IMG/VR virus record: IMGVR_UViG_3300029787_000001
Coordinates: 64,001-128,000 of that record
Length of the DNA stretch: 64,000 bases
Source: a virus
Reading direction: 5' to 3' (one strand)
A model generated the notes under the pieces. That model ran no database searches, was not told the DNA's origin, and worked only from the letters and a program-made list of their open reading frames with translations. Both the position numbers and the translations under genes were made by a program. Shown piece after piece: positions 12,402 through 33,850 of the stretch (within the stretch, counting starts at the first letter, position 1; each line of letters opens with the position of its first letter).

Positions 12402-12402
12402 A

Positions 12403-15913: not shown

Positions 15914-16903
15914 ATGCTAGCAGAATACATTTGGGTTGATGGCTCGGAGCCATACCGCCTGCTTAGAAGCAAAACTAGAGTTTTTGAAGAAAGACCAGAA
16001 AAATTTCCATTATGGAACTTTGATGGATCTTCAACAAATCAGGCTAAAGGTAACAGTTCCGACTGTGTCCTTCAGCCTGTTTTTACTTGTAACGACCCGC
16101 TTCGTTACGATAGCGTGCTGGTCATGTGTGAGGTGTTGACACCTGACATGAAGCCGCACCCATCCAACACCCGCGTGTTTGCAGAACAAGTCGAAAACGA
16201 ATATTCGTCAGAGATGGCGCTCTTTGGTCTTGAGCAAGAGTACACCATCTTCAAAGACGGACGCCCGCTGGGCTTCCCAGAAGGAGGCTTCCCAGAACCA
16301 CAGGGCAAATATTACTGCTCTGCTGGCGGTGGCAGAGTCTTTGGTCGCGAGATAGTTGAAGAACATCTTCGACTCTGCCTCTCAGCCGGCTTAAAAATTG
16401 GCGGCGTTAATGCTGAGGTTATGCCCGGTCAGTGGGAATTCCAGATTGGACCTTTGGGAACCGTAGAGACCGGAGATCACTTGAACATTGCACGCTACCT
16501 TTTGGAGCGTGTCAGCGAAGATTATGGTGTAGAAATCAGTTATGCAGCCAAGCCAATGGCAGGCGATTGGAATGGCGCCGGTTGTCACGTTAATTTTTCT
16601 ACTATTCCCATGAGAGAGTCGCTAAAAGCCTGCGAGGATGCATGCCGCGCCCTTGGTAATAACACCGAAGAGCACATTAAAAATTATGGACACGACATCG
16701 AGTCGCGCCTAACAGGAGCACACGAGACGTGTTCTTACAAGGAGTTTCGTTGGGGGGTGTCAGATAGGACAGCCTCAATCCGCATCCCTTGGGGCGTCGC
16801 TAAAGCAGGCAAGGGGTACATTGAAGACCGCCGCCCCAATGCCGACTGTGATCCTTATCTCGTTTGCGGTCTCATCTTAAAAACAGTTATGGAGAACAGA
16901 TGA
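15914..16903 (+). CDS. glnII: Glutamine synthetase, type II
   Basis: AEYIWVDG, LRSKT, WNFDGSST, GLEQEY, NAEVMPGQWEFQIGP, DWNGAGCH, RLTGAHET, EDRRP; 329 aa length fits GSII. Confidence 0.9.
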   Translation: MLAEYIWVDGSEPYRLLRSKTRVFEERPEKFPLWNFDGSSTNQAKGNSSDCVLQPVFTCNDPLRYDSVLVMCEVLTPDMKPHPSNTRVFAEQVENEYSSEMALFGLEQEYTIFKDGRPLGFPEGGFPEPQGKYYCSAGGGRVFGREIVEEHLRLCLSAGLKIGGVNAEVMPGQWEFQIGPLGTVETGDHLNIARYLLERVSEDYGVEISYAAKPMAGDWNGAGCHVNFSTIPMRESLKACEDACRALGNNTEEHIKNYGHDIESRLTGAHETCSYKEFRWGVSDRTASIRIPWGVAKAGKGYIEDRRPNADCDPYLVCGLILKTVMENR

Positions 16904-18180
16904 CAAAAAAGAAAATCTTAGTCCTCTCAGACCACCCCCTATCACCCTCTGGCGTAGGGACTCAAACAAAGTACATGATTGAGGCACTATTGAAGACCGG
17001 TCGCTATCAGTTTGTTTGCCTCGGAGGTGCCGTAAAGCACGGGGACTACACGCCTCAGATGGTCGATCCTTGGGGTGATGATTGGCGCATTTTCCCAGTT
17101 GATGGCTATGGTAACCACGAGATTATTCGCTCTGTGTTACAAAAAGAACGTCCAGACGCCTTGTGGTTTATGACAGACCCCAGATTCTATGGATGGCTTT
17201 GGGAAATTGAAAACGAGGTCCGAGCAAACATCCCCATGGTTTACTACCATGTCTGGGACAACTTCCCCGCCCCACAGTACAACGCTGATTTTTACAACTC
17301 TACAGATGTGGTTGCCTGCATTTCTAAAGTCACACATGCAGTCGTGCAAGATGTGGCGCCAGAAGTAGAGTCTTGCTATCTCCCGCACGCAGTCAATGAA
17401 TCCATCTTCCATCCTGCTAAGACTGATGAAGAAGAAAGAGCACAAGTCATAATGCGCAAAAGGGTTATGGACACATCTACCGCCATTCACCCAAAAAAGA
17501 AAATCTTCTTCTGGAACAACCGTAATGCCCGACGCAAGCAGAGTGGCACCCTTATTTGGTGGTTCAAGGAGTGGCTCGATAAGGTCGGACACGACAAGGC
17601 AACTCTCTTGATGCACACAGATCCTCGCGACCCTCACGGTCAAGATCTGCCACATCTAATCAACCATCTTGGTCTAGATAATGGACAAGTCCTAATGTCC
17701 ACCAAGAAAGTTCCACCCGAAGAACTTGCCAATCTCTACAGAATGGCAGACTACACCATCAACATCTCTGATGCTGAGGGCTTTGGTCTTGCAACTCTTG
17801 AGTCACTTTCTTGCGGAACACCAATCATTGTTAACATGACAGGCGGGCTACAAGAACAGGTAACAGACGGAAAGGATTGGTTTGGCTTCGGCATCGAGCC
17901 TGCATCGAAGACAGTCATCGGCTCTCTGCAAGTGCCCTACATCTATGAGGATCGCATTTCACAGCGAGACTTCGAGAAGACACTTACGAAGGCACTTAAG
18001 AACCCAACAAAGAAATACAGACAAATGGCTTCACAGGGTCGCAGGCACGTGCTAAAATCTTACAACTTTGAGACTTTTGAAAAGTCTTGGATTGATTTAA
18101 TGGACAAAGTCATAGAAGAGCATGGCTCTTGGGAAACAAGACAAAAATACCAACGCTGGCATTTGATGGAGGTAGCGTGA
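16900..18180 (+). CDS. Glycosyltransferase family 4 (GT-B)
   Basis: SGVGTQ, NRNARRKQ, EGFGLATLESLSCGTPII motif; start at ATG 16900 from RBS GGAG. Confidence 0.85.
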   Translation: MTKKKILVLSDHPLSPSGVGTQTKYMIEALLKTGRYQFVCLGGAVKHGDYTPQMVDPWGDDWRIFPVDGYGNHEIIRSVLQKERPDALWFMTDPRFYGWLWEIENEVRANIPMVYYHVWDNFPAPQYNADFYNSTDVVACISKVTHAVVQDVAPEVESCYLPHAVNESIFHPAKTDEEERAQVIMRKRVMDTSTAIHPKKKIFFWNNRNARRKQSGTLIWWFKEWLDKVGHDKATLLMHTDPRDPHGQDLPHLINHLGLDNGQVLMSTKKVPPEELANLYRMADYTINISDAEGFGLATLESLSCGTPIIVNMTGGLQEQVTDGKDWFGFGIEPASKTVIGSLQVPYIYEDRISQRDFEKTLTKALKNPTKKYRQMASQGRRHVLKSYNFETFEKSWIDLMDKVIEEHGSWETRQKYQRWHLMEVA

Positions 18181-19418
18181 AAAAGAAAGTTTTGCTAAAG
18201 GGTCCTCTACTGACCCGCTCTGGCTATGGAGAACAAGCTCGCTTTGCTCTCCGTTCACTTCGATCTCGTGAAGATCTATTTGAAGTCTTTATTCAGCCTC
18301 TACAGTGGGGCAAGACCTCTTGGGCTTCCGAGATGGATGAAGAGCGTGTCTGGATTGATGAGACCATCGAAAAGACTATCGCTTACGTCCAACAAGGCGG
18401 ACAGTTTGATGTTTCGCTACAAGTGACCATTCCCAACGAGTTCCAGCGACTTGCCCCTATCAATGTCGGCTACACCGCCGGCATCGAGACTACAAAAGTA
18501 GCGCACCAGTGGATTCAGAAAGCAAATGAGATGGACAAGATTATTGTTGTCTCCAACCACTCTAAGCAAGTGTTCGAGAGCACAGAGTACGCCGCTACAA
18601 ACCAACAAACTGGAGAGCAGGTCACCCTGCGCACCCAGACCCCTGTTGAATCTGCCGGCTATCCTGTGAAGACCTATGAAAACCTACCAGAACTAGAACT
18701 CGGTCTATCAACCGCATTCAACTTCTTGACGGTCGCCCAGTTTGGTCCGAGAAAGAACCTCCACAACACTATCAAGTGGTTTATTGAAGAGTTTAGAAAT
18801 GAAGATGTCGGTCTTGTAGTCAAGTCCAACATAGCAAAGAACTCCCTAATGGATCGTAAGAAGCTCCATGGAGATCTGACCCACTTCCTACGTCAACAGG
18901 GAGAGAGACAATGCAAGGTATACCTCCTACACGGCGACATGACTGACGCCGAAATGCACTCCTTGTATTCCAACCAGCAAATCCATGCATTTGTCTCTCT
19001 CCCACATGGCGAAGGCTTTGGTCTACCATTGTTTGAAGCAGCCTACTCAGGTCTTCCTGTGGTCGCTACAGGGTGGTCTGGTCAGCTAGATTTTCTTATT
19101 GATAGCGAAGGTCAAGAACAATTTTATAACGTAGCCTTCGACCTGCAACAAGTCCAGAAAGAGGTTGTTTGGGATGGGGTAATCGTCCCTGACTCCATGT
19201 GGGCTTATGCTCGCGAAGGATCTGCAAAACAACAAATGCGCAAGTGCTACGAGGAAAAAACTGTAGAACGCGACCTCACATATGCACAGAGCCTGACAGA
19301 ACGCTTCTCTGAAGAAAAGATGTATGAGAGGTTTGTCAGCCTGACACAATCACAAGAGGCAGCCGAGATGTCTGAATGGTTGAAAGAACTAGAAGAAGAA
19401 TTGGAAGAATATGAATAA
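18177..19418 (+). CDS. Glycosyltransferase family 4 (GT-B)
   Basis: SGYG, RKNL, GEGFGLPLFEAAYSGLPVVAT; GTG start at 18177 after GGAGG. Confidence 0.85.
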   Translation: MKKKVLLKGPLLTRSGYGEQARFALRSLRSREDLFEVFIQPLQWGKTSWASEMDEERVWIDETIEKTIAYVQQGGQFDVSLQVTIPNEFQRLAPINVGYTAGIETTKVAHQWIQKANEMDKIIVVSNHSKQVFESTEYAATNQQTGEQVTLRTQTPVESAGYPVKTYENLPELELGLSTAFNFLTVAQFGPRKNLHNTIKWFIEEFRNEDVGLVVKSNIAKNSLMDRKKLHGDLTHFLRQQGERQCKVYLLHGDMTDAEMHSLYSNQQIHAFVSLPHGEGFGLPLFEAAYSGLPVVATGWSGQLDFLIDSEGQEQFYNVAFDLQQVQKEVVWDGVIVPDSMWAYAREGSAKQQMRKCYEEKTVERDLTYAQSLTERFSEEKMYERFVSLTQSQEAAEMSEWLKELEEELEEYE

Positions 19419-20250
19419 AATTGTATTTGTCTCAGATTTTTTTATTGAGGACATAGTAGGTGGCGGTGAACTAAACGATTATGAAGTTTATAAATTGTTT
19501 GTTCAAAAAGGATATGAGGTTGGCAGAATTAGAAGCCATATGTTCGCTTCTGACCATCTAGACAAAGATGCATTTTATGTAATTTCCAATTTCATTAATC
19601 TTAATTATCAATTAAGAGAGCTACTACAGGATTACAATTATATAATTTACGAGCATGATCACAAATACATACGCTCTAGAAACCCAGCGCTATACAAAAA
19701 CTTTGAAGCTCCAAAAGACCAGATAATCAATCAGGACTTTTACGATAATGCGGCGGCTGTTTTGTGTCAGTCAAATTTTCACATGGACATAGTAAAAAAA
19801 AACATATGTTTAGATAATATTGTAAGCGTAGGCGGCAATGTCTGGAGTCTAAAATCATTAGATTTTATGAGACAAATAAGTCAAGTAGAAAAAAAAAATA
19901 AAACTTCAATATTACATTCAAATATTGAGCACAAAAATACATTGGGTGCAATAGAATATTGTATTAGAAAGAATGAAAGTTACGAGCTAGTGAGTGATAA
20001 AGATTACTATTCTTTTCTATCTAAGTTAGGCAAAAATAGAAAGTTTGTCTTTATACCAAAAACTCCTGAAACTCTCTCTAGGGTATGCGTCGAAGCCAGA
20101 ATGATGAATATGTCAGTTGTCGTTAACAGTCTGATCGGCGCAAGCAAAGAGCCTTGGTATTCACTAAAGGGCACAGATTTGATTGATTATATGATAGAAA
20201 AAAGGGAAAAAGTTGTAGAAAAAATAATAGGAATCTTCAATGAGCAATAG
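19411..20250 (+). CDS. Probable glycosyltransferase (GT-B-like)
   Basis: GGGE N-terminal loop; PETLSRVCVEARM resembles GT4 ExxGxxxxEA motif; cluster context. Confidence 0.5.
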   Translation: MNKIVFVSDFFIEDIVGGGELNDYEVYKLFVQKGYEVGRIRSHMFASDHLDKDAFYVISNFINLNYQLRELLQDYNYIIYEHDHKYIRSRNPALYKNFEAPKDQIINQDFYDNAAAVLCQSNFHMDIVKKNICLDNIVSVGGNVWSLKSLDFMRQISQVEKKNKTSILHSNIEHKNTLGAIEYCIRKNESYELVSDKDYYSFLSKLGKNRKFVFIPKTPETLSRVCVEARMMNMSVVVNSLIGASKEPWYSLKGTDLIDYMIEKREKVVEKIIGIFNEQ

Positions 20251-20980
20251 ATTTATAATAATGGTGCCGTTCTACAATGTACAAAAATGGATAAAATACA
20301 ATATCGCATCTATTAAAAAACAGAAGTATGATAATTTTATCTGTGTCTTGGTTGATGACATATCCACTGATAACTCTTATGAGGTTGCGAAAAAGATGGT
20401 GGGTGAAGACCCGCGTTTCATTTTGGTCAAAAACACTGAGAAAAAACTAGCTCTAAGAAATATTTATGAAGGTATTGAATTGGCAGATCCTAGCCAAGAA
20501 GATATCATTGTGACTTTGGATGGAGATGATTGGTTTAGCTCTGATGATGTTTTAAGCTATCTCGATGAATTCTATAATCAACAAGATTGTTGGCTCACAT
20601 ATGGCAGCTATTTAGAGTTTCCTAGTGGTCGTAGAGGCAAATTCACCAGACAAATACCCCAGCAGGTTATAGATCTGAATGCTTATAGACAATACGAGTG
20701 GTGTAGCTCACACCTTAGGACGTTTAAATATCACTTATGGTCTAAGATCGAAAAAGAGGATTTATTAGATTCTGAAGGCAACTTTTATAAAATGGCTTGG
20801 GACTTATCTTTTATGTTTCCAATGCTAGAGATGTCAAAAAACAAGTCAAGATTTATAGATAAATGTTTATATACATATAATCTTGATAATCCATTAAACG
20901 ATCATAAGACAGATAATGCTTATCAGGTCAGGCTTGAGATGGAAATTAGAAACAAGCCAAAATATGAGGAAATAATATAA
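20240..20980 (+). CDS. Glycosyltransferase family 2
   Basis: IMVPFYN, VDDISTD, LDGDDW motifs. Confidence 0.85.
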   Translation: MSNRFIIMVPFYNVQKWIKYNIASIKKQKYDNFICVLVDDISTDNSYEVAKKMVGEDPRFILVKNTEKKLALRNIYEGIELADPSQEDIIVTLDGDDWFSSDDVLSYLDEFYNQQDCWLTYGSYLEFPSGRRGKFTRQIPQQVIDLNAYRQYEWCSSHLRTFKYHLWSKIEKEDLLDSEGNFYKMAWDLSFMFPMLEMSKNKSRFIDKCLYTYNLDNPLNDHKTDNAYQVRLEMEIRNKPKYEEII

Positions 20981-21789
20981 TGTTAACTTGTGACGTAATG
21001 GGACCTAGTAAAATAGATGGGCATTATCTTGCTGGTCTTGGTAATCAAATGTTTACAATCGCCGCCACCGTGGCATTAGCATTGGATAATGAAGATGTCG
21101 CAGTTTTCCCAGACTTACAAAACAGAGACTGGTTCGGAACATATACAGATAATGTCTTTAGAAAGCTGACGATTGATGGAGATAAAGGGTTTGTAAAATA
21201 TCTATATCAAGAGCCAAGCTGGAAGTTTGCCAAAATACCATATAAAAAGGATCTGTGCTTAAGTGGTTATTTTCAATCAGAGAAATATTTTGCCCACAGA
21301 AGAAAGGAAATATTAAAAGTATTTGAAATTCCTGATTCTATTTTGGGTCACATAAAAGAAAAATATTCTGACATATTTGCAAAACAAAAACTTATTGGAG
21401 TTCATGTAAGAAGAGGTGACTACTTGACACCAACGCTAAGCCAATTTCATCATGCTCAAGCAGTTGACTATTATCACAGAGCCATGAGCTTGTTTGATGA
21501 AGATAGCAACTTTATATTTTTTAGTGACGACATAGAATGGTGTAAACAAAATTTTTCATCTATAAATAACACCCACTTTATAGAAGGAGAGACTGATGTT
21601 GTTGATTTATATTTTATGTCAGTTATGGAACACAATATAATCGCAAACTCTACGTTCTCATGGTGGGGTGCTTGGCTCAACCAAAATCCAGACAAAATAG
21701 TTATTGCTCCACACAAGTGGTATGGTCCTAAAAATTCACACCTAGAAGATAACGATATAATCCCAGAACATTGGAAGATTGTAAAATGA
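20980..21789 (+). CDS. Glycosyltransferase family 11 (alpha-1,2-fucosyltransferase family)
   Basis: GLGNQMF, GYFQSEKYF, HVRRGDY, FSDDIEWC, NSTFSWWGAWL. Confidence 0.9.
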   Translation: MLTCDVMGPSKIDGHYLAGLGNQMFTIAATVALALDNEDVAVFPDLQNRDWFGTYTDNVFRKLTIDGDKGFVKYLYQEPSWKFAKIPYKKDLCLSGYFQSEKYFAHRRKEILKVFEIPDSILGHIKEKYSDIFAKQKLIGVHVRRGDYLTPTLSQFHHAQAVDYYHRAMSLFDEDSNFIFFSDDIEWCKQNFSSINNTHFIEGETDVVDLYFMSVMEHNIIANSTFSWWGAWLNQNPDKIVIAPHKWYGPKNSHLEDNDIIPEHWKIVK

Positions 21790-22481
21790 AAATAGCTGTA
21801 CTAAATGTCGCAACTGGCGGATACATTGATTTGTCAAAGCGCCTGTTTGAAAGTATAAAGAGCAACTTTTTAGTTGATCATCAAGTAGACATCTTTTTGT
21901 TTACTGACAGCGATGAGCAATTTGCAGATAATATTAAAAAGTATAATATTAAAAGAAGAGGTTTTCCCGGTGATACACTGCTTAGATATCATTACTTTTT
22001 GCTAGCTGAGAAAGAATTGTTGCAGTATGATTTTCTTTTCTATCTTGACGCAGATTTGTATATAGAGAAGTCAATTGGAGAAGAAATAATTTCTGACATT
22101 GTTGCTGTTCATCATCCGGGCTTCTTTGGAAAAACCAATGGTACCTTTGAGCGACGACAAATATCAACAGCCTTTGTAGATTCAAATATCAATAGCCCTT
22201 ATTTTTGCGGTGGTGTTCAGGGCGGCAGAACGGAACATTATTTAGCAGTTTGCAGAGAGATAAAGAACAACATAAACGTTGATATGTCAAAGGGCGTGAT
22301 GGCGGTGTGGCATGACGAGTCGCATTGGAATCACTTTTTATCAATTAATAAACCAACCCTTGCGCTAGATCCAAGATACTGTTATCCAACTGACGCTCAT
22401 TTTCCATGGATTGAAAACCTCAACGATGATCGCAAAATTATAACTGTAGAAAAAAACGAAGAAGAGATAAGAAAATTATGA
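21786..22481 (+). CDS. Glycosyltransferase family 6 (ABO/alpha-1,3-Gal(NAc)T family), DXD type
   Basis: ATGGY, FLFTD, YLDAD, HPGF, FERR, YFCGGVQGG, WHDESHWN. Confidence 0.85.
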   Translation: MKIAVLNVATGGYIDLSKRLFESIKSNFLVDHQVDIFLFTDSDEQFADNIKKYNIKRRGFPGDTLLRYHYFLLAEKELLQYDFLFYLDADLYIEKSIGEEIISDIVAVHHPGFFGKTNGTFERRQISTAFVDSNINSPYFCGGVQGGRTEHYLAVCREIKNNINVDMSKGVMAVWHDESHWNHFLSINKPTLALDPRYCYPTDAHFPWIENLNDDRKIITVEKNEEEIRKL

Positions 22482-23206: not shown

Positions 23207-23228
23207 GTTTTAAATTAGGAGTCAAATT

Positions 23229-24209
23229 TTGTTAGATATAGAAAACATTGAATCTAAATTCAATTCTGTTATTAATACCTGTGAGTTTAGAGAGTTACAA
23301 ACTGTTTATAATAAAGCAAAGCACGTTTTTTTCTTTGGTCATGGTGGCAACATGAGTATCGCTGAGCATGCAGCCATAGACGCCTCTAGGCTTACAAACA
23401 AGAACGTGTACGCCCCCGGTGGTGGCGTGATAGTAACCTCTATCCAAGGAGATACTAGTTTTAACGATTGGATACAAAGCTGGCTAGAAATTAGAACTAG
23501 AAATCTAAATTTTGATGAGTGCCTTGCGATTGGGCTATCATGCTCTACTAGTGGCGCCTCATCAGACTGTCTCGCAACTGCGTTAAACTGGGCAGCCGAA
23601 GCTGGCATTCCCAGTGCTCTTTGGGCAGCCCAGCCAAAAGAAAAAGGAATCAATTCAAAGGTAGTCCAAATAATACAGCATGCCAAGCACTACCATACAT
23701 CTGAAATACTGTCTTTGACCATGACTTATGAATTAATTCATGGTGCTGGATTCACATGCCCCAGCATATCCAAGAAGGCTCAGCAAAGAAGATTTGAAAA
23801 GCTAGGAATTGAATCAGAAGTAGAAATACATAATAAAGAAGTTCCTCCGGGCATGGAGCATCAATTGTCAAATCTGGCAATTGATTTTGACGGTGTTGTG
23901 CACACATTTGATAAGGGATGGCACGATGGTACGTGCTACGGTGAGCCAATAGAAGGAGCAGTAGAGGCTATAAAAAGCTTATCTGAACACTGGAACATTA
24001 TTATTTTTTCTGCCAAGGTTAGACCTGATAGACCGCTTGTAAACGGTATGACTGGATACGAGTTGGTAGATGAATGGCTAGAGAAGCATGGAGTTCGCAA
24101 CTGTGTTTCTGAGATAACTCATGAAAAGCCACGAGCTAAATTTTACATCGATGATAAGGCTATTGAATTTAAAAACAATTGGGATGATATCCTTGAGAGG
24201 TTAAAGTGA
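23229..24209 (+). CDS. SIS-domain sugar isomerase fused to HAD-family phosphatase
   Basis: FFGHGGNMSIAEHAAID (GmhA-like SIS), GLSCS; C-terminal LAIDFDGVVH, IIFSAK, YIDDKA. Confidence 0.75.
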   Translation: MLDIENIESKFNSVINTCEFRELQTVYNKAKHVFFFGHGGNMSIAEHAAIDASRLTNKNVYAPGGGVIVTSIQGDTSFNDWIQSWLEIRTRNLNFDECLAIGLSCSTSGASSDCLATALNWAAEAGIPSALWAAQPKEKGINSKVVQIIQHAKHYHTSEILSLTMTYELIHGAGFTCPSISKKAQQRRFEKLGIESEVEIHNKEVPPGMEHQLSNLAIDFDGVVHTFDKGWHDGTCYGEPIEGAVEAIKSLSEHWNIIIFSAKVRPDRPLVNGMTGYELVDEWLEKHGVRNCVSEITHEKPRAKFYIDDKAIEFKNNWDDILERLK

Positions 24210-24871: not shown

Positions 24872-26085
24872 AAAGAAATAGTTGTCTTGTGTGCGGCTCT
24901 AAGTCGCTTGAGATTATTGTTGATCTTGGCAATCATGCTTTTGCAGATACATTTGTCCCTATTGACAAGAAAAATGATCAACTAGTTACATACAATTTAT
25001 CATGTGCAATCTGCCATGATTGTGGCAATATTCAAACTTGTTCAAAGACAAATCCAAGTGATAGATATTCGTTGTTTGATTATTCCTATACATCATCTAA
25101 TTCAAGAACTTCACAAAACCATTGGAAGAGTTTTTGCCTTGACGTTGCTAAGAAAATTAAATTAAATAAAAAAGCTTTTGTCATAGAGGTCGGCTCAAAT
25201 GATGGCTATCTTCTTGAACAGTTTAAGAAAAACTTCGACGCTGATGTTCTAGGTATCGATGCATCCAAGCACGTCTCGGATATAGCAAATCAAAATGGCA
25301 TTGAGACAAAAGTTGCAATCTTTGATAGTAAAGTATCAAAGGGTGTGTTAAACAATTACGGCATGGCAGATTTAATAGTTGCTAATAATGTTTTTAATCA
25401 CTCTGAAGATCCTGTAGATTTTGCAAAGGCGGTGGCTGCTTTATTGAAAAATAACGGTGTCTTTGTTTTTGAAGTTCCTTATTGGAAGTCCGCTGTTGAT
25501 TCTGAAAAGATAGACCAAATTTACCATGAGCACGTTAGTTATATGACTGTAAAAAGTGTTAAGAAGACGCTGGAACTATCTGGGCTAAATATCATCGATG
25601 TGCAGGTTGTTGATTACCATGGTGGCTCATTGAGAGTATATTGCGGACCGTCTGTGTCTAAAGAACCACAAGTGGTTGATGATATGATAAATAATGAGGA
25701 CGCATCCGGCATCTTCAAAAAAGACACTTACAAGCTGTTATTGGAAAAAATTGACAATAAAAAGATAAACTTAATGAGAAAAATCTATGATATCAAAAAG
25801 TCTGGTGGCTCTCTCATATGTGTTGGTGCCGCCGCCAAGGGCAATACTTTTTTGACATTTTTAAATTTAGATAATTCAATCATAGATTATGTGACCGATG
25901 CATCTGAATACAAGCAAGGCAAATTCACACCTCTTACGTCAATACCAATTTGTGGCGATGATATTTTTAGAGAATATAATGAAGTATATGCAATAATACT
26001 ATCTTGGAATATTTCTGGTAAATTAAAAGAAAAGTTACATGAAATTAATTCCAAAATTAAATTTTTAGTTTTTGATGATTTTTAA
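24868..26085 (+). CDS. NDP-sugar C-methyltransferase (Zn-binding, class I SAM)
   Basis: CLVCGS..CHDCG Zn site; EVGSNDG; ANNVFNH; YHEH; HGGSLR; GAAAKGNT. Confidence 0.85.
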   Translation: MKRNSCLVCGSKSLEIIVDLGNHAFADTFVPIDKKNDQLVTYNLSCAICHDCGNIQTCSKTNPSDRYSLFDYSYTSSNSRTSQNHWKSFCLDVAKKIKLNKKAFVIEVGSNDGYLLEQFKKNFDADVLGIDASKHVSDIANQNGIETKVAIFDSKVSKGVLNNYGMADLIVANNVFNHSEDPVDFAKAVAALLKNNGVFVFEVPYWKSAVDSEKIDQIYHEHVSYMTVKSVKKTLELSGLNIIDVQVVDYHGGSLRVYCGPSVSKEPQVVDDMINNEDASGIFKKDTYKLLLEKIDNKKINLMRKIYDIKKSGGSLICVGAAAKGNTFLTFLNLDNSIIDYVTDASEYKQGKFTPLTSIPICGDDIFREYNEVYAIILSWNISGKLKEKLHEINSKIKFLVFDDF

Positions 26086-26097
26086 TCGGAGTAATAA

Positions 26098-26508
26098 ATG
26101 ATAAAAAGAAACGCTTGGAACGATATTAGAGCACCCCTTGAGTTCCATGAAGATGACAGGGGTAAGATAGCTGACATTTTTTATAAGGGTTCCATAGAAC
26201 ATGTTGCCATAATTAAATCTAAACCCGGCTCTATTCGAGGCAATCACTACCATGAGGAATCCACTCAGCATATGTTGATTACAAAAGGAAGTTTAGAATA
26301 TTGGTATAAAAAATTAGATACAGACGAAGAACCACAGTGTGTTATAATGCAAGAGGGTGATATAATATCTACCCCTCCCTTTGAAGTTCACGCACTTAAA
26401 ATTATCGATGAAAACGAATTCATTGTTTTTAGTGAGGGTCGTCGCGGCGGTCAAGATTATGAAAGCGATACAATAAGAATTGATGGCAACATTATTGGAG
26501 GATTGTGA
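26098..26508 (+). CDS. Cupin-fold sugar epimerase/isomerase
   Basis: HEDDRG, RGNHYH, TPPFEVH. Confidence 0.75.
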   Translation: MIKRNAWNDIRAPLEFHEDDRGKIADIFYKGSIEHVAIIKSKPGSIRGNHYHEESTQHMLITKGSLEYWYKKLDTDEEPQCVIMQEGDIISTPPFEVHALKIIDENEFIVFSEGRRGGQDYESDTIRIDGNIIGGL

Positions 26509-26509
26509 T

Positions 26510-27079
26510 ATGAGCGAACCTATCAGACTTCATTTGGGCTGCGGTCATAGGTACTTGCCGGGCTTCGTGCATGTAGATCAGGACCCACTTGAGCATGTGG
26601 AACATGTTCTTGATATCAAAGACTTGTCTATTTTTGAGGACAATAGCGTAGATGAAATCTACTCTTGTGGAGTTGTTGTTTATTTTGATAGATTCCAAAT
26701 CAAAGACGTTCTCAAAGAATGGAGTCGCGTTTTAAAGAGCGGAGGAAAACTTAGAATTTCCATTGCAGATTTTGAAAAAATGGTGCAAGTCTACCTAGAT
26801 AGCGGAAAAGTTCTTGAGTCTCGTGGCATTCTTGGTCCGCTATTTGGTAGATGGGAGATTACTGAAGACGGAGAATCAAAAATGATTTATCAAACCACGA
26901 CATATGATTTTAAGTCTTTAGAAAAAGTATTGATAGGCTGCGGCTTTGCTTCGGTTGAAAGATACGATTGGCGAGATTTCTTACCGGAGGGCTTTGATGA
27001 TTATTCCAGAGCCTACATCCCCCATATGGATGAAACCGGACTACATTTATCTCTAAATGTGGTATGTGAAAAAAGATGA
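26510..27079 (+). CDS. SAM-dependent methyltransferase (type 11-like)
   Basis: RLHLGCG, VHVD, EWSRVLKSGG; start at ATG 26510 after GGAGG. Confidence 0.8.
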   Translation: MSEPIRLHLGCGHRYLPGFVHVDQDPLEHVEHVLDIKDLSIFEDNSVDEIYSCGVVVYFDRFQIKDVLKEWSRVLKSGGKLRISIADFEKMVQVYLDSGKVLESRGILGPLFGRWEITEDGESKMIYQTTTYDFKSLEKVLIGCGFASVERYDWRDFLPEGFDDYSRAYIPHMDETGLHLSLNVVCEKR

Positions 27080-27543
27080 AATCTGTAACCAACAATAAAC
27101 TCAGCAGTGATTGCTGGTGGCCACCGGGCTATAATGTTCAGCCACACAGAATTATGATGGCAAATCTTAATTTTGTCACTGATTCTATTGTTGACAGGGT
27201 TAACGTTGAATCTAGAACAATACTGTCACTCAAACCTACCTTGATAAAGGAGACACCTCATTATCAGTATGCTATGGGAAATATTCAGCCCTATAAAGAG
27301 TATTTGGAAAAATGCAAACATATAACATGGGCGAGAGCAGCCATCAATCAAGAACACATAGACCTCCAGTTTATGTTTGATAAATTTGATAAAATTTTAA
27401 ATACTGATCTGTCTTATTTGGACCCACCGCACCAAGATAAATATATTATCATAAATCGAAATAAACAAATAATTGATGGCTTACACCGAGCAGTTGCTCT
27501 GATGAGTCAAGGCATAGAGGAAGTGCCAATAGCTTTAGTATAG
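27076..27543 (+). CDS. Hypothetical protein with ParB/Srx-like DGxHR motif
   Basis: IIDGLHRAVAL near C-terminus. Confidence 0.5.
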   Translation: MKSVTNNKLSSDCWWPPGYNVQPHRIMMANLNFVTDSIVDRVNVESRTILSLKPTLIKETPHYQYAMGNIQPYKEYLEKCKHITWARAAINQEHIDLQFMFDKFDKILNTDLSYLDPPHQDKYIIINRNKQIIDGLHRAVALMSQGIEEVPIALV

Positions 27544-27552
27544 GAATTCATT

Positions 27553-28245
27553 GTGCTTTTACCTTTGATAAATAATGACAAAAGATTTATAGTATGCTGG
27601 AATGCAAAAGCTGGCTGTACTGCGGTTAAACGATGGTATTTGGGAACAATGGGTGTCAACCCTGATGAGGTTAATCCGCACAAAGTAATAGCAGCCAATG
27701 CTCCACATATTAGCCCCACGCAAATACAACATCATTATGGAGATTATTATAAATTTATAGTCTGTAGAAATCCATGGAAAAGAATAGTAAGCTATTACAA
27801 AAATAAAAAAGTTGCTGTTTGGTGGAAAAATAAGACATGGCCAATAGACACGAGAGTCAGGAACTTGAATAGTGAAGACTTCACGTTCAGACAGTTAGTG
27901 TATTATGTGTGCCAAACTCCAGATCATTTTTTGGAACAACATATTCAAAGCCAAACCAGTCAATTAGGCGACATAGCTTTTAATAGCGTAGTAAAATTAG
28001 AGAACTTCAGTTCAGATATGAATGAGGTTTGTGATATACTAGGAATAAGCTATAGAAATTTTTCAAATCCAAACAAGACATTAGAAACCACAAACAAGGT
28101 GAATGTTAGTGATTTAAATCCTAAAGAATTTACTAACGACAACATGCCATCTTATGAGTGCTTTTACGATGATGAATTAAGAAATATGATTTTTGAAAAG
28201 TTTAAAAAAGATATAGAATACTTCAATTACAAATTTGAGAATTAA
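27553..28245 (+). CDS. Sulfotransferase family 2 (carbohydrate sulfotransferase-like)
   Basis: 5'-PSB-like NAKAGCT; 3'-PB-like FIVCRNPWKRIVSYY; HIQSQ; VVKLEN. Confidence 0.8.
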   Translation: MLLPLINNDKRFIVCWNAKAGCTAVKRWYLGTMGVNPDEVNPHKVIAANAPHISPTQIQHHYGDYYKFIVCRNPWKRIVSYYKNKKVAVWWKNKTWPIDTRVRNLNSEDFTFRQLVYYVCQTPDHFLEQHIQSQTSQLGDIAFNSVVKLENFSSDMNEVCDILGISYRNFSNPNKTLETTNKVNVSDLNPKEFTNDNMPSYECFYDDELRNMIFEKFKKDIEYFNYKFEN

Positions 28246-28246
28246 T

Positions 28247-28660
28247 ATGAAAAAGATTTTTTCAAAGGTAGAAAAAGGGCTGTTATTACATGCCATCCAT
28301 CGTTATGAAGATATAACCGAGAAGAGAGCAGACATAAGCCCAGAAGAAGAATTTTTACAGGTCTCCACCTTTCGTTTAAAAAAAGATAAGACCTTCCGGG
28401 CTCACTATCACATAGAAAACATAAAAGAGACGAATCGAACGCAAGAATCTTGGGTTGTAATAAAAGGCTCTGTTAAAGTTATGTTATATGATATTGACAA
28501 GAGGCTAATCTCAGAAGAGATATTAAAGCAAGGTGATTGCACTGTTACTTTTCGTGGCGGACACAATTATCTATGTCTAGAGGACGATACGGTCGTTTAT
28601 GAATACAAAACAGGACCCTACCAAGGTCAAAAATTAGATAAAGAGTTCATATATGTTTGA
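28247..28660 (+). CDS. WbuC-like cupin-fold protein
   Basis: FRAHYH, QESWVVIKG, GGHNY, EYKTGPY. Confidence 0.7.
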   Translation: MKKIFSKVEKGLLLHAIHRYEDITEKRADISPEEEFLQVSTFRLKKDKTFRAHYHIENIKETNRTQESWVVIKGSVKVMLYDIDKRLISEEILKQGDCTVTFRGGHNYLCLEDDTVVYEYKTGPYQGQKLDKEFIYV

Positions 28661-29465
28661 TAAAACAAAAATTTGCCTCGTGCAAAACACATTAGGTCCA
28701 AATGTCTACGGTGGTCTTTTTACTCAGGACGAAAATACTGATGTGGTAGCATATGTTGACTATGCAATTGGTAACGCTAAAAAAGAAGATCAAAGATTAA
28801 AAGTGGCCATATTGGTTGAGCCCGCCGTCGTTAATTCAAGTTTATATAATTGGATTGAAAATAATCATTCTCTATTTGATCTTGTTTTGACTCACAACAA
28901 GGCACTGTCTGAAAAAAATGAAAAGTTTAAATACTACCCAGTCTGGCCTAGAATTTGGATACCTAAACCCGATAGAAAAATCTATGACAAGACAAAAAAG
29001 GTATCTGCTATATTTTCTAACAGAAATCAAACAATTGGGCACAAAACTAGGCACGTTATAGCCAAGCAGTTCTCTAGTTTGATTGATTTGTATGGCAAGG
29101 GGTATAACCCAATAGAAACAAAAACAGAGGGCATTTCTGACTACATGTATCATGTTGTAGTAGAGAATGAGCAGCGTGGATATGCTAGTGAGAAAGTAAA
29201 TGATTCTTTTTGTTGCGGCTCTATACCAATATACTGGGGTGATGATACATCAAATGTGTTGGACTTTTATAACAAAGATGGCATTTTGATGTTTGAGACT
29301 ATGGAAGAATTAGAAAATATTTTACTAAACATTGCATCAGAGACGTATTACAATAGTAAAAAAGAAGCCATAGAGGAAAATTTCAATAAAGCAGCCAACT
29401 TGTCTTTAGACAAAATTTATTGGGATTATGGTATAGAAAATTTCTTAAGACAGAGAGGGTTCTAA
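28653..29465 (+). CDS. Glycosyltransferase family 10-like (alpha-1,3-fucosyltransferase family)
   Basis: YHVVVEN...YASEKVNDSF..GSIPIYWG matches the GT10 donor-binding motif. Confidence 0.7.
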   Translation: MFDKTKICLVQNTLGPNVYGGLFTQDENTDVVAYVDYAIGNAKKEDQRLKVAILVEPAVVNSSLYNWIENNHSLFDLVLTHNKALSEKNEKFKYYPVWPRIWIPKPDRKIYDKTKKVSAIFSNRNQTIGHKTRHVIAKQFSSLIDLYGKGYNPIETKTEGISDYMYHVVVENEQRGYASEKVNDSFCCGSIPIYWGDDTSNVLDFYNKDGILMFETMEELENILLNIASETYYNSKKEAIEENFNKAANLSLDKIYWDYGIENFLRQRGF

Positions 29466-30061
29466 TGAGTTTTGATGTTGTAGAAGAATTTGAAAAAGAA
29501 ATTGCTAATTATTTTGGTGCGCCTCATGCCGTAGCAGTAGATTGCTGTACCCACGGGCTTGAGTTATGCTTGAGACACCAAAAGATAAATCACTACACCA
29601 CCCCCAAGAGAACCTATATATCTGTGCCGCTCTTAGCCAGAAAATTAAATATCACTTTTGATTGGAGAGACGAAAACTGGCAAGAATACTACTGTTTAGG
29701 GGGCACCAATATTGTTGATGCTGCGGTTTTATGGAGGGAAAACTCTTATGTGCCGGGCATGTTTATGTGCTTAAGTTTTCAGTTCAGAAAACATTTGAGT
29801 CTCGGAAGAGGCGGAATGATATTAACAGATGATGAAGAATCTGCTATAATATTGAAAAAGATGTCTTACGATGGAAGGTTGCCTAATATTCCATGGCGTC
29901 AACAAAATATTAACACTATGGGATATCACTATTACATGACTCCCGAAACAGCACAAAGAGGCTTAGACAAACTTACAGATGCCAAAACAACAGTTCCAAA
30001 AAAATGGTCTGTTGAGGATTGGCCAGATTTAACCCACATGGAGATTTTTAAGAATGACTAA
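29465..30061 (+). CDS. Short DegT/DnrJ/EryC1/StrS PLP aminotransferase
   Basis: FEKEIANYFGAPHAVAVDCCTHGL, DAA, LSFQFRKHL..GRGGMILT; only 198 aa. Confidence 0.75.
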   Translation: MSFDVVEEFEKEIANYFGAPHAVAVDCCTHGLELCLRHQKINHYTTPKRTYISVPLLARKLNITFDWRDENWQEYYCLGGTNIVDAAVLWRENSYVPGMFMCLSFQFRKHLSLGRGGMILTDDEESAIILKKMSYDGRLPNIPWRQQNINTMGYHYYMTPETAQRGLDKLTDAKTTVPKKWSVEDWPDLTHMEIFKND

Positions 30062-31031
30062 AAAAAGAGCGCTAATTACTGGAATTAATGGACAAGATGG
30101 AAGCTATCTCACTGAGCACCTAAGCGCTTTGGGATATGAGGTACACGGAATTGTCAGAAGACACTCGGTTGCCGAAAACCAAAATTATAGATTAAGCAAG
30201 ATTGAAGGATTGGAAGATGTTCACTCGCATTACGGCGACCTTTTAGATTATCCTTCTCTTGTCAGAGTTGTAAGCGAGGTCATGCCTGATGAGATTTACA
30301 ATTTGGGTGCTATGAGTCATGTGAGGGTTAGCTTCGATATGCCATCATTTACGATTCAGACTAACGCTCTTGGGGTTCTTCACATGCTAGAGGTTTATAG
30401 AGCCATATGCCCACAAGCTAAATTTTATCAGGCTAGTTCCTCTGAGATGTTTGGCAACTCTGTTGACTCTGACGGGGTTCAGCGCCTAACAACCCCAATG
30501 AATCCGGTGAGCCCCTATGGCTGCGCCAAGGTGATGGGTTACAATTTGGTTAGACATTATCGCCATGCTTACGGACTTCATGCCTGTAATGGCATTTTGT
30601 TTAATCACGAATCTCCTCGACGTGGAACAAACTTTGTTACCAACAAGGTTGTTAATGGCGCTGTTGCAATTAAGAAGGGTCTGCAAAGCAAGTTAGAGCT
30701 TGGTAATATGGACTCGCAGAGAGATTGGGGGCACTCAAAGGATTATGTGCGTGCGATGCATATGATTATCAATCATGATACCCCAGAAGAATTTATTGTC
30801 GCCACCGGAGAAACACACTCAGTTAGAGATCTATGTGAAACTGTGTTTAGTAAACTGGGCATGGATTACAGAGACTACATTGTCCAAAATCCCAAGTATA
30901 TGCGTCCAGAGGAACTAAAGTACCTGTGTGGTGATTCTTCAAAGTCTAGAGAAGTATTAGGCTGGAAGCCGGAATACACATTTGAAACAATGCTTGATGA
31001 GATGATTGAAAGATGGGAGTCAGAGCTTTGA
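30054..31031 (+). CDS. gmd: GDP-mannose 4,6-dehydratase
   Basis: ALITGINGQDGSYL, SHVRVSF, FYQASSSEMFG, PVSPYGCAK, LFNHESPRRG, RDWGH. Confidence 0.95.
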   Translation: MTKKRALITGINGQDGSYLTEHLSALGYEVHGIVRRHSVAENQNYRLSKIEGLEDVHSHYGDLLDYPSLVRVVSEVMPDEIYNLGAMSHVRVSFDMPSFTIQTNALGVLHMLEVYRAICPQAKFYQASSSEMFGNSVDSDGVQRLTTPMNPVSPYGCAKVMGYNLVRHYRHAYGLHACNGILFNHESPRRGTNFVTNKVVNGAVAIKKGLQSKLELGNMDSQRDWGHSKDYVRAMHMIINHDTPEEFIVATGETHSVRDLCETVFSKLGMDYRDYIVQNPKYMRPEELKYLCGDSSKSREVLGWKPEYTFETMLDEMIERWESEL

Positions 31032-31243
31032 ATATTTCAGTGGGAAGCCTTATAAAGTGGTATGAAGAATATTCAGATGGCATCGTTAAAGATGCTGGTA
31101 CTGGGATATTGGTACAAATAAGAGGACCGCGCCCATATGGAAACAGTTACAAAGTTTATAGAAATAAATTTAAAGACTTTATCTGGGTATCTCAAACATG
31201 CATAGAGAAGATAGAATATGAAGATATTGATAACAGGACATAA
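31028..31243 (+). CDS. Small hypothetical protein (possible SH3/KOW-like)
   Basis: TTG start coupled to gmd stop after GGGAG; ISVGSLIKW...GILV pattern. Confidence 0.55.
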   Translation: MNISVGSLIKWYEEYSDGIVKDAGTGILVQIRGPRPYGNSYKVYRNKFKDFIWVSQTCIEKIEYEDIDNRT

Positions 31244-32054
31244 AGGATATATTGGTAGTAAACTTTTTACAAAATTAAACAATGAAACAAACATTGTTCA
31301 TGGTATTGATTTAAAAGATGGAAAAGATGTAATCAAGGATCTACCAGATGCAAATTGTGATTATGTTTTCCACCTCGCAGCCCTTCCTAGCGTGCAGCAA
31401 TCAGTAGATGCGCCTTCCGACACATTCAGAAACAATGCTTATTCTACCTCGGTGCTTCTTGAGTGGGCTAAAAAACATAATGTAAAGCGCGTTATCTTTT
31501 CTTCCTCTGCCGCCGCTGCCAATGTAACATCACCTTATGGGCTTCATAAAAGAATTTCAGAACAAGAGTGCAAGCTATATTCAGATTTATATGGATTAGA
31601 CACTGTTTGTCTCCGTTATTACAATGTCTATTCTGAAGATCAAAAATATGGTGGTTCACACTCCACAGCGATAAGTGCTTGGATGCAGATGATTCGTGAA
31701 GGCAGAGCACTTCGTATAGATGGAGATGGAGAGCAGACAAGAGATTTTGTACATGTTGACGATGTTGTCTCTGCTAACATTTTTTGCATGAATCAAGGTA
31801 AACTATTTGCTGGCGCAATATATGACGTTGCTAGCGGTGCTTCATGCTCCCTAAATTCAGCTAGAGAGATAATAAAAAGAAAACACAATGTAACTTGGAG
31901 CGAAAATCCAGAAAGAAAAGGTGACATTAAGTATTCACACTCAGACATTTCTGGGTTATTATCTCTTGGATGGAAGCCGTCTATTACTATAGAAGATGGC
32001 TTACAAAGATGTTTTTCAAAGGATAATTTATGTGCGGAATCTTTGGCTCAGTAG
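31218..32054 (+). CDS. NAD-dependent epimerase/dehydratase (extended SDR)
   Basis: ILITGHKGYIG, FHLAA, FSSS, YGLHK, LRYYNVY, RDFVHVDD. Confidence 0.9.
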   Translation: MKILITGHKGYIGSKLFTKLNNETNIVHGIDLKDGKDVIKDLPDANCDYVFHLAALPSVQQSVDAPSDTFRNNAYSTSVLLEWAKKHNVKRVIFSSSAAAANVTSPYGLHKRISEQECKLYSDLYGLDTVCLRYYNVYSEDQKYGGSHSTAISAWMQMIREGRALRIDGDGEQTRDFVHVDDVVSANIFCMNQGKLFAGAIYDVASGASCSLNSAREIIKRKHNVTWSENPERKGDIKYSHSDISGLLSLGWKPSITIEDGLQRCFSKDNLCAESLAQ

Positions 32055-33850
32055 CCGATAAAGTAGAATACAAATCAATCAAGCAGGGTCTCAAAAACCT
32101 TGCTTATCGTGGTTATGACTCGGCGGGCATCGCCGTAGCAACCTCGCAAGGAATTGTGATCGAGAGAGCAGAGGGTCACCCCAAGTTTCTCCCCGACCTT
32201 GATCTAAGAGGAACTGTGGCAATCGGACATAACCGATGGGCAACTCACTCTCCTCCAACTAAGGACAACTCGCACCCTTACACCTCTAACGACAACAAGA
32301 TTAGCCTTGTTCACAACGGAATCATCGAGAACTACGTTGAGGTTAAGAGGTTTCTGGAAGAGAAGGGGTTTACTTTCTATTCTCAGACGGACACGGAAGT
32401 TCTCCCCAACCTTATTCAGTATTACCTCTCACAAGGAGACGATCTCCGTGCAGCTATGAGGCATACGGCAAGACAAGTTGAGGGTGCGTTTGGTGTAATC
32501 TTCATTCACGCCGATTACCCAAATCAGATGAATTTGATGAAACTTGGCTCACCGATGTATGTCGGTCGTGCTGACGACGCCGTCTATGTTTGTTCCGATG
32601 CTTATTCCTTCCCCGAAGAGGTGAAGGCTTTCTCATCTATTGATGATAGCAAGATTCTTATTATTCGTAAGGATTCTGTCGATGTTCAAGATTTGAACGG
32701 AACTAAGCTAACTCTGATCTTTGAAGAAAAAGATGTCTCTGCTGACACCTACTGCCTTGGTAAATACGATCACTACATGCAGAAGGAAATCTATGAGCAG
32801 TTTGATTATGTGATGTCCGCGCTCATGGGAAGAATTAAGGACACTGAAATTGTCCTTGGAGGTCTCCAAGACTGCATAGAGAGCTTCTCAGAGAGTAGCC
32901 AAATAATCTACACAGGATGCGGCTCTGCCAACAATGCTGCAAAAGTAGGCGCTCTTGCTATGGAAGAGATAGGCAAGTTGATGACCCGAAACATGCCAGC
33001 AGGAGAACTAAAATATAGAGATGCGCTTGTGGACGATAAGTCTTGGCTTGTAACAGTCTCACAGTCAGGAGAGACCGCTGATGTAATCGGATGCATAAAG
33101 AACATGAAAGCAAAAGGCGCGAGCGTTCTTGGCGTCGTGAACACCCCAAACTCCACCATTTATCAGATGACTGATTGTGGCATTCACATTCGCGCTGGCA
33201 AAGAAGTTTCCGTAGCCTCTACCAAGGCAGTAACAAACCAGATGCTTGCTATGCTCCTTCTCGCTTACAAGATAGGTCTTGAGAACGGATGCTCCTACCG
33301 AGAATACAAAGAATTCGTCAAGGAAGCTCAGCAGTTGCCTTATTTTATAAATAAGGCTATTGGTCAAGAAGGAAAAATTAATAGCATCTGTGCCACTTAC
33401 AAGGGCTCTAAGACTGCTTTTGTGATAGGTCGTAACGTTCTCGAACCAATTGCAGATGAGATTGCTCTCAAGATTAAGGAGATTTCTTACATCCACGCCG
33501 AAGGTTATTCTGGCTCTGAACTCAAGCACGGTCCCTTGGCTCTCATAGACGACCAGATTCTCAACATTTGCCTGCTTGATAAGAACTTCTACCCAGAGAA
33601 GACTATCAGCAACATCGAAGAGATTCGCGCCAGAGGTGGTAAAGTTATTTTAATAACAAACTACACAAAACACGAAATAGGTAATAAAATATATGATAGG
33701 TTGATTAGCGCCGAAACGGGAAGCAACAAGTACATAACTGCAATGGTGTTTAACATCATTGGTCAAATTGTTTCCTATCATCTTGCTCTCCATAATGGTA
33801 GAGACGTTGATCTTCCGAGAAACCTCGCAAAGAGCGTAACCGTCGAATAA
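32030..33850 (+). CDS. glmS: Glutamine--fructose-6-phosphate aminotransferase
   Basis: MCGIFG, YRGYDSAG, GHNRWATH, VHNGIIEN, SQSGETAD, ELKHGP, PRNLAKSVTVE. Confidence 0.97.
   Translation: MCGIFGSVADKVEYKSIKQGLKNLAYRGYDSAGIAVATSQGIVIERAEGHPKFLPDLDLRGTVAIGHNRWATHSPPTKDNSHPYTSNDNKISLVHNGIIENYVEVKRFLEEKGFTFYSQTDTEVLPNLIQYYLSQGDDLRAAMRHTARQVEGAFGVIFIHADYPNQMNLMKLGSPMYVGRADDAVYVCSDAYSFPEEVKAFSSIDDSKILIIRKDSVDVQDLNGTKLTLIFEEKDVSADTYCLGKYDHYMQKEIYEQFDYVMSALMGRIKDTEIVLGGLQDCIESFSESSQIIYTGCGSANNAAKVGALAMEEIGKLMTRNMPAGELKYRDALVDDKSWLVTVSQSGETADVIGCIKNMKAKGASVLGVVNTPNSTIYQMTDCGIHIRAGKEVSVASTKAVTNQMLAMLLLAYKIGLENGCSYREYKEFVKEAQQLPYFINKAIGQEGKINSICATYKGSKTAFVIGRNVLEPIADEIALKIKEISYIHAEGYSGSELKHGPLALIDDQILNICLLDKNFYPEKTISNIEEIRARGGKVILITNYTKHEIGNKIYDRLISAETGSNKYITAMVFNIIGQIVSYHLALHNGRDVDLPRNLAKSVTVE

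Follow-up and report, generated by a model that had tools for sequence, protein, structure and literature searches.

The genome of an uncultured marine T4-like phage of lytic type carries an island of glycan-synthesis genes, all specifying soluble products, in a slot that is fixed across a deep T4-like myovirus lineage. The phage is known from IMG/VR record IMGVR_UViG_3300029787_000001, a single viral contig of 191,359 bp (CheckV completeness, 100%), of which bases 64001-128000 were analyzed; this stretch of 64,000 nucleotides is called the window below, and all positions refer to it. The island comprises 20 tightly packed genes between 16864 and 33850 (Table 1). A preliminary description of this DNA, made from the letters alone, had reported a co-directional run of sugar genes, and this is what was found: every open reading frame (ORF) is on the plus strand and overlaps or abuts its neighbors, two seeming gaps in the run are occupied by small ORFs, and most of the families listed in that description are supported by Pfam. 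Megablast comparison of the whole cluster with 50,697 phage records gave no match. As discussed below, we consider it plausible, if somewhat short of an even chance, that the glycan is attached to a protein which the phage itself makes and which is probably part of the virion.

The gp6-like baseplate protein of the phage is about 30% identical to those of the nearest isolates, Microcystis phage Mel-JY01 and the Flavobacterium "immuto" phages, which places it in a distant T4-like lineage and not among the classical cyanomyoviruses. The slot, common to dozens of related contigs, has the order PD-(D/E)XK nuclease gene, two genes for glycosyltransferases (GTs) of family 4 (GT4a and GT4b), a variable block of about 8-17 kb, a small Zn-ribbon gene, three small conserved genes and the baseplate module. 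The same arrangement is seen in the cultured relatives. Both immuto and Mel-JY01 have the PD-(D/E)XK nuclease gene followed by two GT4 genes 28-35% identical to those in the window (32-33% for GT4b) and then by sugar genes of their own, including a GT2, aminotransferases (one of them of a short form), methyltransferases, an epimerase and further transferases. Rhodothermus phage RM378 carries a GT4a homologue and no cassette.

The contents of the variable block were compared, using the window proteins, in 82 loci: the best 80 of more than 423 viral contigs that carry the gene for a fused SIS isomerase and HAD phosphatase (SIS-HAD), plus two IMG/VR contigs (L001 and L002) reached through the sulfotransferase. 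SIS-HAD is thus present in 82 of 82 by construction; the cytidylyltransferase gene adjoins it in 69. A Gmd homologue was found in 44 loci, GT4b in 39, GT4a in 35 and the sialyltransferase-like gene in 27, while GT11 and GT6 were present in 10 and the GT10-like and sulfotransferase genes in 7. The SIS-HAD and cytidylyltransferase pair, often accompanied by the sialyltransferase-like gene, forms the recurrent core of the cassettes. The fusion itself is phage-specific and may be called a hallmark gene of phages. Against the more than 423 viral contigs stand three contigs of metagenome-assembled genomes (MAGs) that encode it at full length, in a search of about 185,000 prokaryotic species represented by one genome each; the same cytidylyltransferase gene adjoins it in all three, and all other genome matches cover the HAD half only. 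The three MAG contigs (L086, L087 and L089) are labelled Nisaea, Verrucomicrobia and Gammaproteobacteria and may be phage contigs that were binned into MAGs.

The preliminary description knew of no second phage locus with the full set of these genes. The set proved not to be unique, since at least five more viral contigs carry the module, L001 and L002 at 54-87% identity. In L001 and L002, the run from GT4b to the short-chain dehydrogenase/reductase (SDR) gene is syntenic with the window at 45-87% amino acid identity and lacks GlmS; GT4a is found at 56-57% identity in L004 and L020, loci that overlap these on the two contigs. Three further contigs (L006-L008) have a diverged and partly reordered set, GT11-GT6-GT29-like followed by sulfotransferase-GT10-Gmd, at 33-69% identity. 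Cassette content is out of step with the flanking genes: the locus with the nearest flanks, L067 (GT4a, 70% identity; GT4b, 69%), contains another cassette, whereas L001 and L002 share the cassette of the window and have flanks that are only about 57% identical. This discordance indicates that cassettes are exchanged. The base composition is consistent with such exchange, the G+C content being 32-41% in the variable part (19411-30061) versus 47% in the adjacent GT4 pair and about 42% in the genome. The two genes that flank the island, for GlmS and for a glutamine synthetase of the GSII-like type, were found in none of the 82 loci. They would represent a phage-specific boost to hexosamine supply through which nitrogen is channelled in, and the GSII-like enzyme may serve as the glutamine source for GlmS.

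Family assignments were examined individually where they were weak or where the preliminary description had said that its reading could fail. The three calls of the latter kind, GT6, GT10 and GT29-like, all survive. The GT6 protein matched BoGT6a of Bacteroides at 5e-34 and the human ABO transferases GTA and GTB at about 1e-24. Its D-A-D motif aligns with N-A-N of BoGT6a, the catalytic WHDES sequence is kept, and small residues (C-G-G) occupy what we take to be the positions that separate GalNAc- from Gal-transferring ABO enzymes. The GT11 protein, well above the Pfam cut-off, had no match in the PDB at E <= 0.01 in a sequence search. The GT10 call is also upheld. Besides narrowly passing the profile cut-off, the protein matched the alpha1,3-fucosyltransferase of H. 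pylori (2nzw) at 7e-6 across the signature EN....Y.(T/S)EK...IPIYWG, with SEK where the motif has TEK; profile matches are confined to residues 112-230.

The GT29-like protein stands at the Pfam threshold, with a match in the motif-L region (residues 14-67), and a sequence search of the PDB produced nothing useful for it. Its fold, however, is that of a sialyltransferase. An AlphaFold model built from a 19-sequence alignment had a pLDDT of 92.7, and all 25 of its Foldseek matches in the PDB at E <= 0.001 were sialyltransferases of family GT29 or GT42 (probability 1.0; TM 0.42-0.56), with ST8SiaIII, ST6Gal1 and ST3Gal1 (GT29) and CstII (GT42) at the top and ST6GalNAc2 (GT29) and CstI (GT42) among the others. 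Two blocks conserved in the family, P/N-T-G and G-I-D-F-Y, and the invariant H200 are candidates for the sialylmotifs and the catalytic histidine, as judged from the alignment. The protein has no hydrophobic segment and no type II membrane anchor, for which reason we class it as a sialyltransferase-fold, GT29/GT42-like enzyme rather than as a member of GT29. A scan for close relatives with this protein alone returned no viral contigs; relatives came to light with the sulfotransferase and with the SIS-HAD alignment as queries.

The SIS-HAD protein has no match in Pfam or NCBIfam. A profile search of the PDB gave marginal matches, with spurious ones to Rab proteins topmost, so that structure prediction was required. 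In the resulting model, the N-terminal domain (residues 1-175) corresponds to GmhA (Z 18.6; rmsd 2.4 over 160 residues) and scores lower with the SIS domain of KdsD (Z 15.2). The C-terminal domain (residues 211-326) is a small HAD fold, with a Z of 11.8 to HAD proteins and of 9.2 to the phosphatase of T4 Pnk. The two-domain assignment originally made for this gene is thereby borne out. The adjoining cytidylyltransferase matched PseF at 1.6e-18 and KdsB at 5e-8 in NCBIfam, both far under the equivalog cut-offs.

For the DegT-type aminotransferase, the family originally named is correct and the size is not that of a full aminotransferase: the gene specifies a half-size form. Alignment to perosamine synthetase showed that the large domain is shorter by about 45 residues, that there is no C-terminal domain at all and that the Schiff-base lysine is kept. 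The short form is 61-63% identical in L001 and L002 and 32% identical in immuto and is present in 20 of the 82 related loci; because of this conservation we regard it as a real gene and not as a fragment. The gene listed as an epimerase can be defined more closely: the nearest PDB matches of this SDR are GalE and the UDP-GlcNAc 4-epimerases WbgU and WbpP, and not GDP-fucose synthase. The probable GT-B enzyme downstream of the GT4 pair matches no Pfam or NCBIfam family; it has an invariant E220-x7-E228, and its Atlas neighbors are 95-98% viral, some of them carrying a Glycos_transf_1 domain. The search that left the 155-aa protein unassigned included both Pfam and NCBIfam. Finally, the two GT4 proteins also match the Pfam GT4-conflict family weakly, and B736L of PBCV-1 is among the weak PDB matches of GT4a.

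Table 1. Genes of the glycan island and the GSII-like gene preceding it, with window coordinates and the matches on which each assignment is based.
Product	Position	Strand	Evidence and remarks
GSII-type glutamine synthetase-like, 329 aa	15914..16903	+	Pfam Gln-synt_C 4e-20, Gln-synt_N 2e-12; outside conserved slot
GT4 glycosyltransferase "a", lineage core gene	16864..18180	+	Pfam Glycos_transf_1 1.3e-14, 54.5 bits
GT4 glycosyltransferase "b", lineage core gene	18129..19418	+	Pfam Glycos_transf_1 4e-8, 33.4 bits
Probable GT-B (GT4-like), phage-specific family	19411..20250	+	EX7E motif and Atlas neighbors alone
GT2 glycosyltransferase	20240..20980	+	Pfam Glycos_transf_2 1e-19, 71.5 bits
GT11 (alpha1,2-fucosyltransferase family)	20980..21789	+	Pfam Glyco_transf_11 (PF01531) 1.3e-28, 100.5 bits, cut-off 23.9
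GT6 (ABO / alpha1,3-Gal(NAc) transferase family)	21771..22481	+	PF03414 1.6e-32, 113 bits, cut-off 25
Sialyltransferase-fold (GT29/GT42-like), soluble, 242 aa	22478..23206	+	Pfam GT29 23.6 bits (cut-off 23); AlphaFold/Foldseek
SIS (GmhA-like) isomerase-HAD phosphatase fusion	23229..24209	+	Structural model, DFDGV motif
CMP-ulosonate-type cytidylyltransferase	24206..24871	+	Pfam CTP_transf_3 1.2e-12, 48.6 bits
NDP-hexose C-methyltransferase (TylC3-type)	24868..26085	+	Pfam Methyltransf_14 4.5e-32, Methyltransf_13 6.8e-10
Cupin (sugar-nucleotide epimerase/isomerase-type)	26098..26508	+	Pfam Polysacc_synt_C 6e-12, Cupin_2
S-adenosylmethionine (SAM) methyltransferase	26480..27079	+	Pfam Methyltransf_11 3.7e-7
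Conserved ORF, 155 aa	27076..27543	+	No family match; 67-70% identity in L001/L002
Carbohydrate-type sulfotransferase	27553..28245	+	Pfam Sulfotransfer_2 2.2e-19, 71 bits, full length
WbuC-family cupin	28235..28660	+	NCBIfam TIGR04366 2.8e-11, 43.4 bits, cut-off 42
GT10-like C-terminal catalytic domain (alpha1,3/4-fucosyltransferase family)	28653..29465	+	PF00852 6e-6, 26.4 bits, cut-off 23.9
Half-size DegT-type aminotransferase, 213 aa	29420..30061	+	Pfam 1.7e-19, 70.7 bits
GDP-mannose 4,6-dehydratase (Gmd)	30054..31031	+	Pfam 1.7e-114, 383 bits
UDP-hexose/HexNAc 4-epimerase-like SDR	31218..32054	+	Best PDB matches: GalE 4.6e-32, WbgU/WbpP ~1e-25
GlmS (glutamine:fructose-6-P amidotransferase)	32030..33850	+	Pfam SIS 5e-45, GATase_6

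It is plausible that these enzymes work together in the following manner. The conserved GT4 pair would lay the base of a glycan that is then grown sugar by sugar in the cytoplasm. GlmS and the GalE/WbgU-like 4-epimerase would increase the supply of UDP-GlcNAc and UDP-GalNAc for GT6 and other transferases, and Gmd would furnish GDP-4-keto-6-deoxymannose. Through the action of the C-methyltransferase, the cupins, the short perosamine-synthase-like DegT enzyme, the methyltransferase and/or a fucose synthase of the host, GDP-6-deoxyhexoses might then be formed for GT11 and the GT10-like enzyme. SIS-HAD and the cytidylyltransferase would generate a CMP-activated ulosonic acid by a logic like that of 3-deoxy-D-manno-octulosonate (Kdo), the phosphoenolpyruvate-condensing synthase coming from the host. 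The acid may or may not be Kdo itself, the SIS domain being most similar to GmhA and the synthetase closer to PseF than to KdsB. Once activated, it would be attached as a cap by the sialyltransferase-fold enzyme, and methyl and sulfate groups would finish the glycan. Cassette swapping would give rise to different glycan "serotypes" among related phages.

The preliminary description had recognized no export machinery in the cluster, and this absence was confirmed and extended to the whole 191-kb genome. No cluster protein has a 19-residue Kyte-Doolittle window above 1.52. Genome-wide, a crude Kyte-Doolittle scan for a flippase or polymerase found no ORF with more than four hydrophobic segments, and searches for priming transferases (PF02397, Bac_transf; PF00953, Glycos_transf_4, the WecA/MraY family) and for ABC exporters (ABC_tran) returned no match, with positive controls in reference genomes. 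The genome also lacks matches to PF00793, the family of the Kdo-8-phosphate synthase KdsA; NeuB was likewise not found in it, nor were adenosine 5'-phosphosulfate (APS) kinase, a ManC-type nucleotidyltransferase or a phosphoglucomutase/phosphomannomutase. GDP-mannose, 3'-phosphoadenosine 5'-phosphosulfate (PAPS) and the ulosonate-forming synthase must therefore come from the host. No Pfam match to MptE/Maf was obtained.

What does the glycan decorate? The preliminary description took virion proteins to be the probable acceptor, which the analysis supports in part. Several findings were counted in favor of a phage protein, probably of the virion: the key families, SIS-HAD among them, are phage-specific; the cluster is co-directional with the baseplate genes downstream and contains no early-type promoter cassette; and there is neither a membrane segment in the cluster nor a priming or export gene in the genome. 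Furthermore, the nuclease-GT4-GT4-variable layout recurs in immuto and Mel-JY01, phages of hosts from different phyla, a point in favor of an acceptor intrinsic to the phage, and the DNA of immuto contains no glycosylated nucleoside. More tentatively, this lineage of aquatic T4-like phages as a whole might possess a "virion serotype" system, in which the GT4 pair would prime a particle protein and horizontally swapped cassettes would build the glycans; the one in this phage would be A/Lewis-like, methylated, sulfated and capped by a ulosonic acid. One possible acceptor lies in the baseplate/fibre module. The 329-aa product of the plus-strand ORF at 60300-61289 begins with a region rich in Ser and Thr and finishes with a tail rich in Pro, Thr and Ser, the last residues being GSSY. 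Of its 20 distant relatives, about half have likewise kept a low-complexity tail, with SSY or GY at the end; the protein might serve as a mucin-like acceptor of glycans or simply as a flexible linker.

Between the end of the island and the first recognizable baseplate gene (44146) lie about 10 kb of DNA, with an M23 peptidase gene and an ORF of 2100 aa among the conserved genes. The genes at 44146 and 44529 were confirmed with PHROGs as baseplate wedge genes. The 2100-aa ORF (37812-44114) is one of two giant ORFs of the baseplate region, the other (47751-56594) measuring 2947 aa. The gene at 34552-35313, taken for a late sigma factor in the preliminary description, encodes a conserved 253-aa protein that resembles RpoS weakly, in a sigma region-2-like stretch (E 0.44), and matches nothing in Pfam or PHROG. 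The T4 late promoter sequence TATAAATA is not enriched. The genome contains 31 copies of ACTATTTA, a candidate promoter motif. Many starts have it 15-35 nt ahead of them, and for 20 copies an ORF begins no more than 80 nt downstream; among the genes preceded by it are those for the gp6-like baseplate protein, for PhoH and for proteins with a shared N-terminal tag. Copies at 12402 and 44506 flank the island region, and none is found between 12.4 and 44.5 kb. PHROGs names almost no gene behind ACTATTTA, and its status as a late promoter could not be shown.

A number of points weigh against a virion acceptor. No conserved Ser/Thr-rich acceptor was found, and the 60300-61289 protein has no homologue in the contigs with the same cassette, which makes it only a lead. 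The island lies upstream of the structural module and not within the head and tail genes, the location in the mycobacteriophage precedent (see below). The sugars invoked are those that family membership would suggest, and fucose in particular is not assured, because no GDP-fucose synthase is encoded by the phage. The glycosyltransferases of O-antigen synthesis are likewise soluble and act on undecaprenyl carriers that are primed by the host and exported by host flippases. Missing transmembrane segments in the transferases therefore do not discriminate between acceptors, and the missing export genes are compatible with a destination on the host surface. Lastly, comparable clusters have been published as host-surface modification, which is the standard reading for the 24-gene "LPS" cluster of P-SSM2 (PMC1079782), for the hypervariable region with sugar genes of pelagimyophages (PMC7029224) and for S-SCSM2R, with its 13 glycosyltransferases, including GT10 and GT11, plus KdsA and KdsB (PMC12801897).

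By this account, the soluble transferases would extend, at the cytoplasmic face, a host-primed lipid-linked intermediate or the lipopolysaccharide (LPS) core, the product being exported by flippase, ligase or ABC systems of the host; O-antigen or exopolysaccharide would be changed during infection, for example blocking superinfection or lessening the trapping of progeny on debris. We regard such remodelling as less likely than a phage-protein acceptor but as a rival to be taken seriously. Bacterial relatives of GT6 and GT11 serve in surface-polysaccharide synthesis, and the nearest solved GT6 is from Bacteroides. The low G+C content and cassette-like variability are reminiscent of O-antigen loci, and GDP-mannose, PAPS and the ulosonate synthase are all supplied by the host. 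However, the phage genome is without priming transferase, flippase, polymerase, ligase and ABC transporter, and a foreign unit would need to be accepted by the host flippases. The GT4 pair and the slot are common to phages whose hosts have very different envelopes, and the key genes belong to old phage-specific families rather than being recent captures from hosts. Moreover, this is a T4-like phage of lytic type, with no recognizable early promoter cassette in the cluster.

Two further readings have to be weighed against a virion protein. The enzymes might glycosylate phage or host proteins that are not part of the particle, thereby disarming or masking a host factor, for instance, or they might make a free or secreted oligosaccharide. 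Solubility of all the enzymes and absence of carrier and export genes fit such a product, as do the weak GT4-conflict matches of the two GT4 proteins. We nonetheless deem it improbable: with at least eight transferases and the tailoring enzymes, the glycan should be complex, which is unusual for toxin-like protein glycosylation, PADLOC gave no matches for the transferases, and no candidate target was identified. Hypermodification of DNA, in which glycans on modified phage bases would protect against restriction, is very unlikely. Glycans can be added to DNA as hypermodifications by phage glycosyltransferases (Pyle et al., as cited in PMC12619734). The nuclease gene does adjoin the GT4 pair, but the genome contains no hydroxymethylase of the ThyA family. 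In addition, we know of no case in which GT6, GT10, GT11 or GT29-type enzymes or sulfotransferases act on DNA. Immuto shares the GT4 pair and likewise has a sugar cassette, and its digested DNA contained only dA, dC, dT and fdPreQ1, with no glycosylated nucleoside (PMC10516641).

The clusters of cyanomyoviruses and pelagimyophages resemble the present island in that a lytic marine T4-like phage carries a large and variable set of soluble glycosyltransferases and sugar-nucleotide enzymes. The island differs from these clusters in its more distant lineage, in its fixed slot behind a conserved GT4 pair, in its sulfotransferase, and in having the SIS-HAD, cytidylyltransferase and sialyltransferase-fold triad in place of KdsA and KdsB. 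GT6 genes are found in 72 phage records, mostly of cyanophages, and many lie beside GT11; no mention of a GT29-like gene in marine phages was found in the literature searched. The combination of isomerase, phosphatase, CMP activation and a cytoplasmic sialyltransferase-fold transferase parallels the Kdo pathway (KdsD, KdsA, KdsC, KdsB) and the Maf-type nonulosonate glycosylation of flagellin. It departs from the Kdo pathway in that KdsA and NeuB are lacking, the SIS domain is nearest to GmhA and the cytidylyltransferase is far under the KdsB and PseF cut-offs; a Maf match is also lacking. Unlike an O-antigen or capsule locus of the Wzx/Wzy- or ABC-dependent type, the island has no initiating transferase, flippase/polymerase or ABC exporter.

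To our knowledge, mycobacteriophages are the one case in which phage transferases have been shown by experiment to glycosylate the virion. Their soluble glycosyltransferases, acting in the cytoplasm, are reported to modify the C-termini of phage structural proteins (Freeman et al. 2023, as cited in PMC12619734 and PMC12801897). As described in those accounts, a few transferases are encoded beside the capsid and tail-tube genes, whereas in the present phage some 20 genes, known from sequence, lie upstream of the baseplate module. Capsid glycans of chloroviruses and fibril glycans of Megavirinae are products of clade-specific, virus-encoded clusters, as reported in PMC9614988 and PMC10117803. 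The giant viruses offer a parallel, in that their own sugar-nucleotide pathways and transferases, organized in clade-specific cassettes, decorate the particle independently of host export. These viruses are eukaryotic, however, and no sequence relationship was detected beyond generic GT4 similarity. New here are the lineage, the fixed slot behind the GT4 pair, the presence of the SIS-HAD/cytidylyltransferase/sialyltransferase-fold module in hundreds of viral contigs and its combination with a sulfotransferase.

Large sugar clusters have been on record for lytic marine phages since 2005, and the label "LPS genes" is routinely given to them without test. The locus described here sharpens the question, for it consists of exchangeable cassettes in a fixed slot behind a conserved transferase pair, in phages with hosts from different phyla, it includes a phage-specific CMP-sugar module that is present in hundreds of viral contigs, and immuto and Mel-JY01 are cultured relatives that allow the acceptor to be determined directly. 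If the acceptor is on the host surface, this would be a rare example of a lytic phage that rewrites the O-antigen without export genes of its own. If it is on the virion, sulfated and acid-capped glycans would bear on the stability of the particle, on grazing, on adsorption to marine gels and on host recognition.

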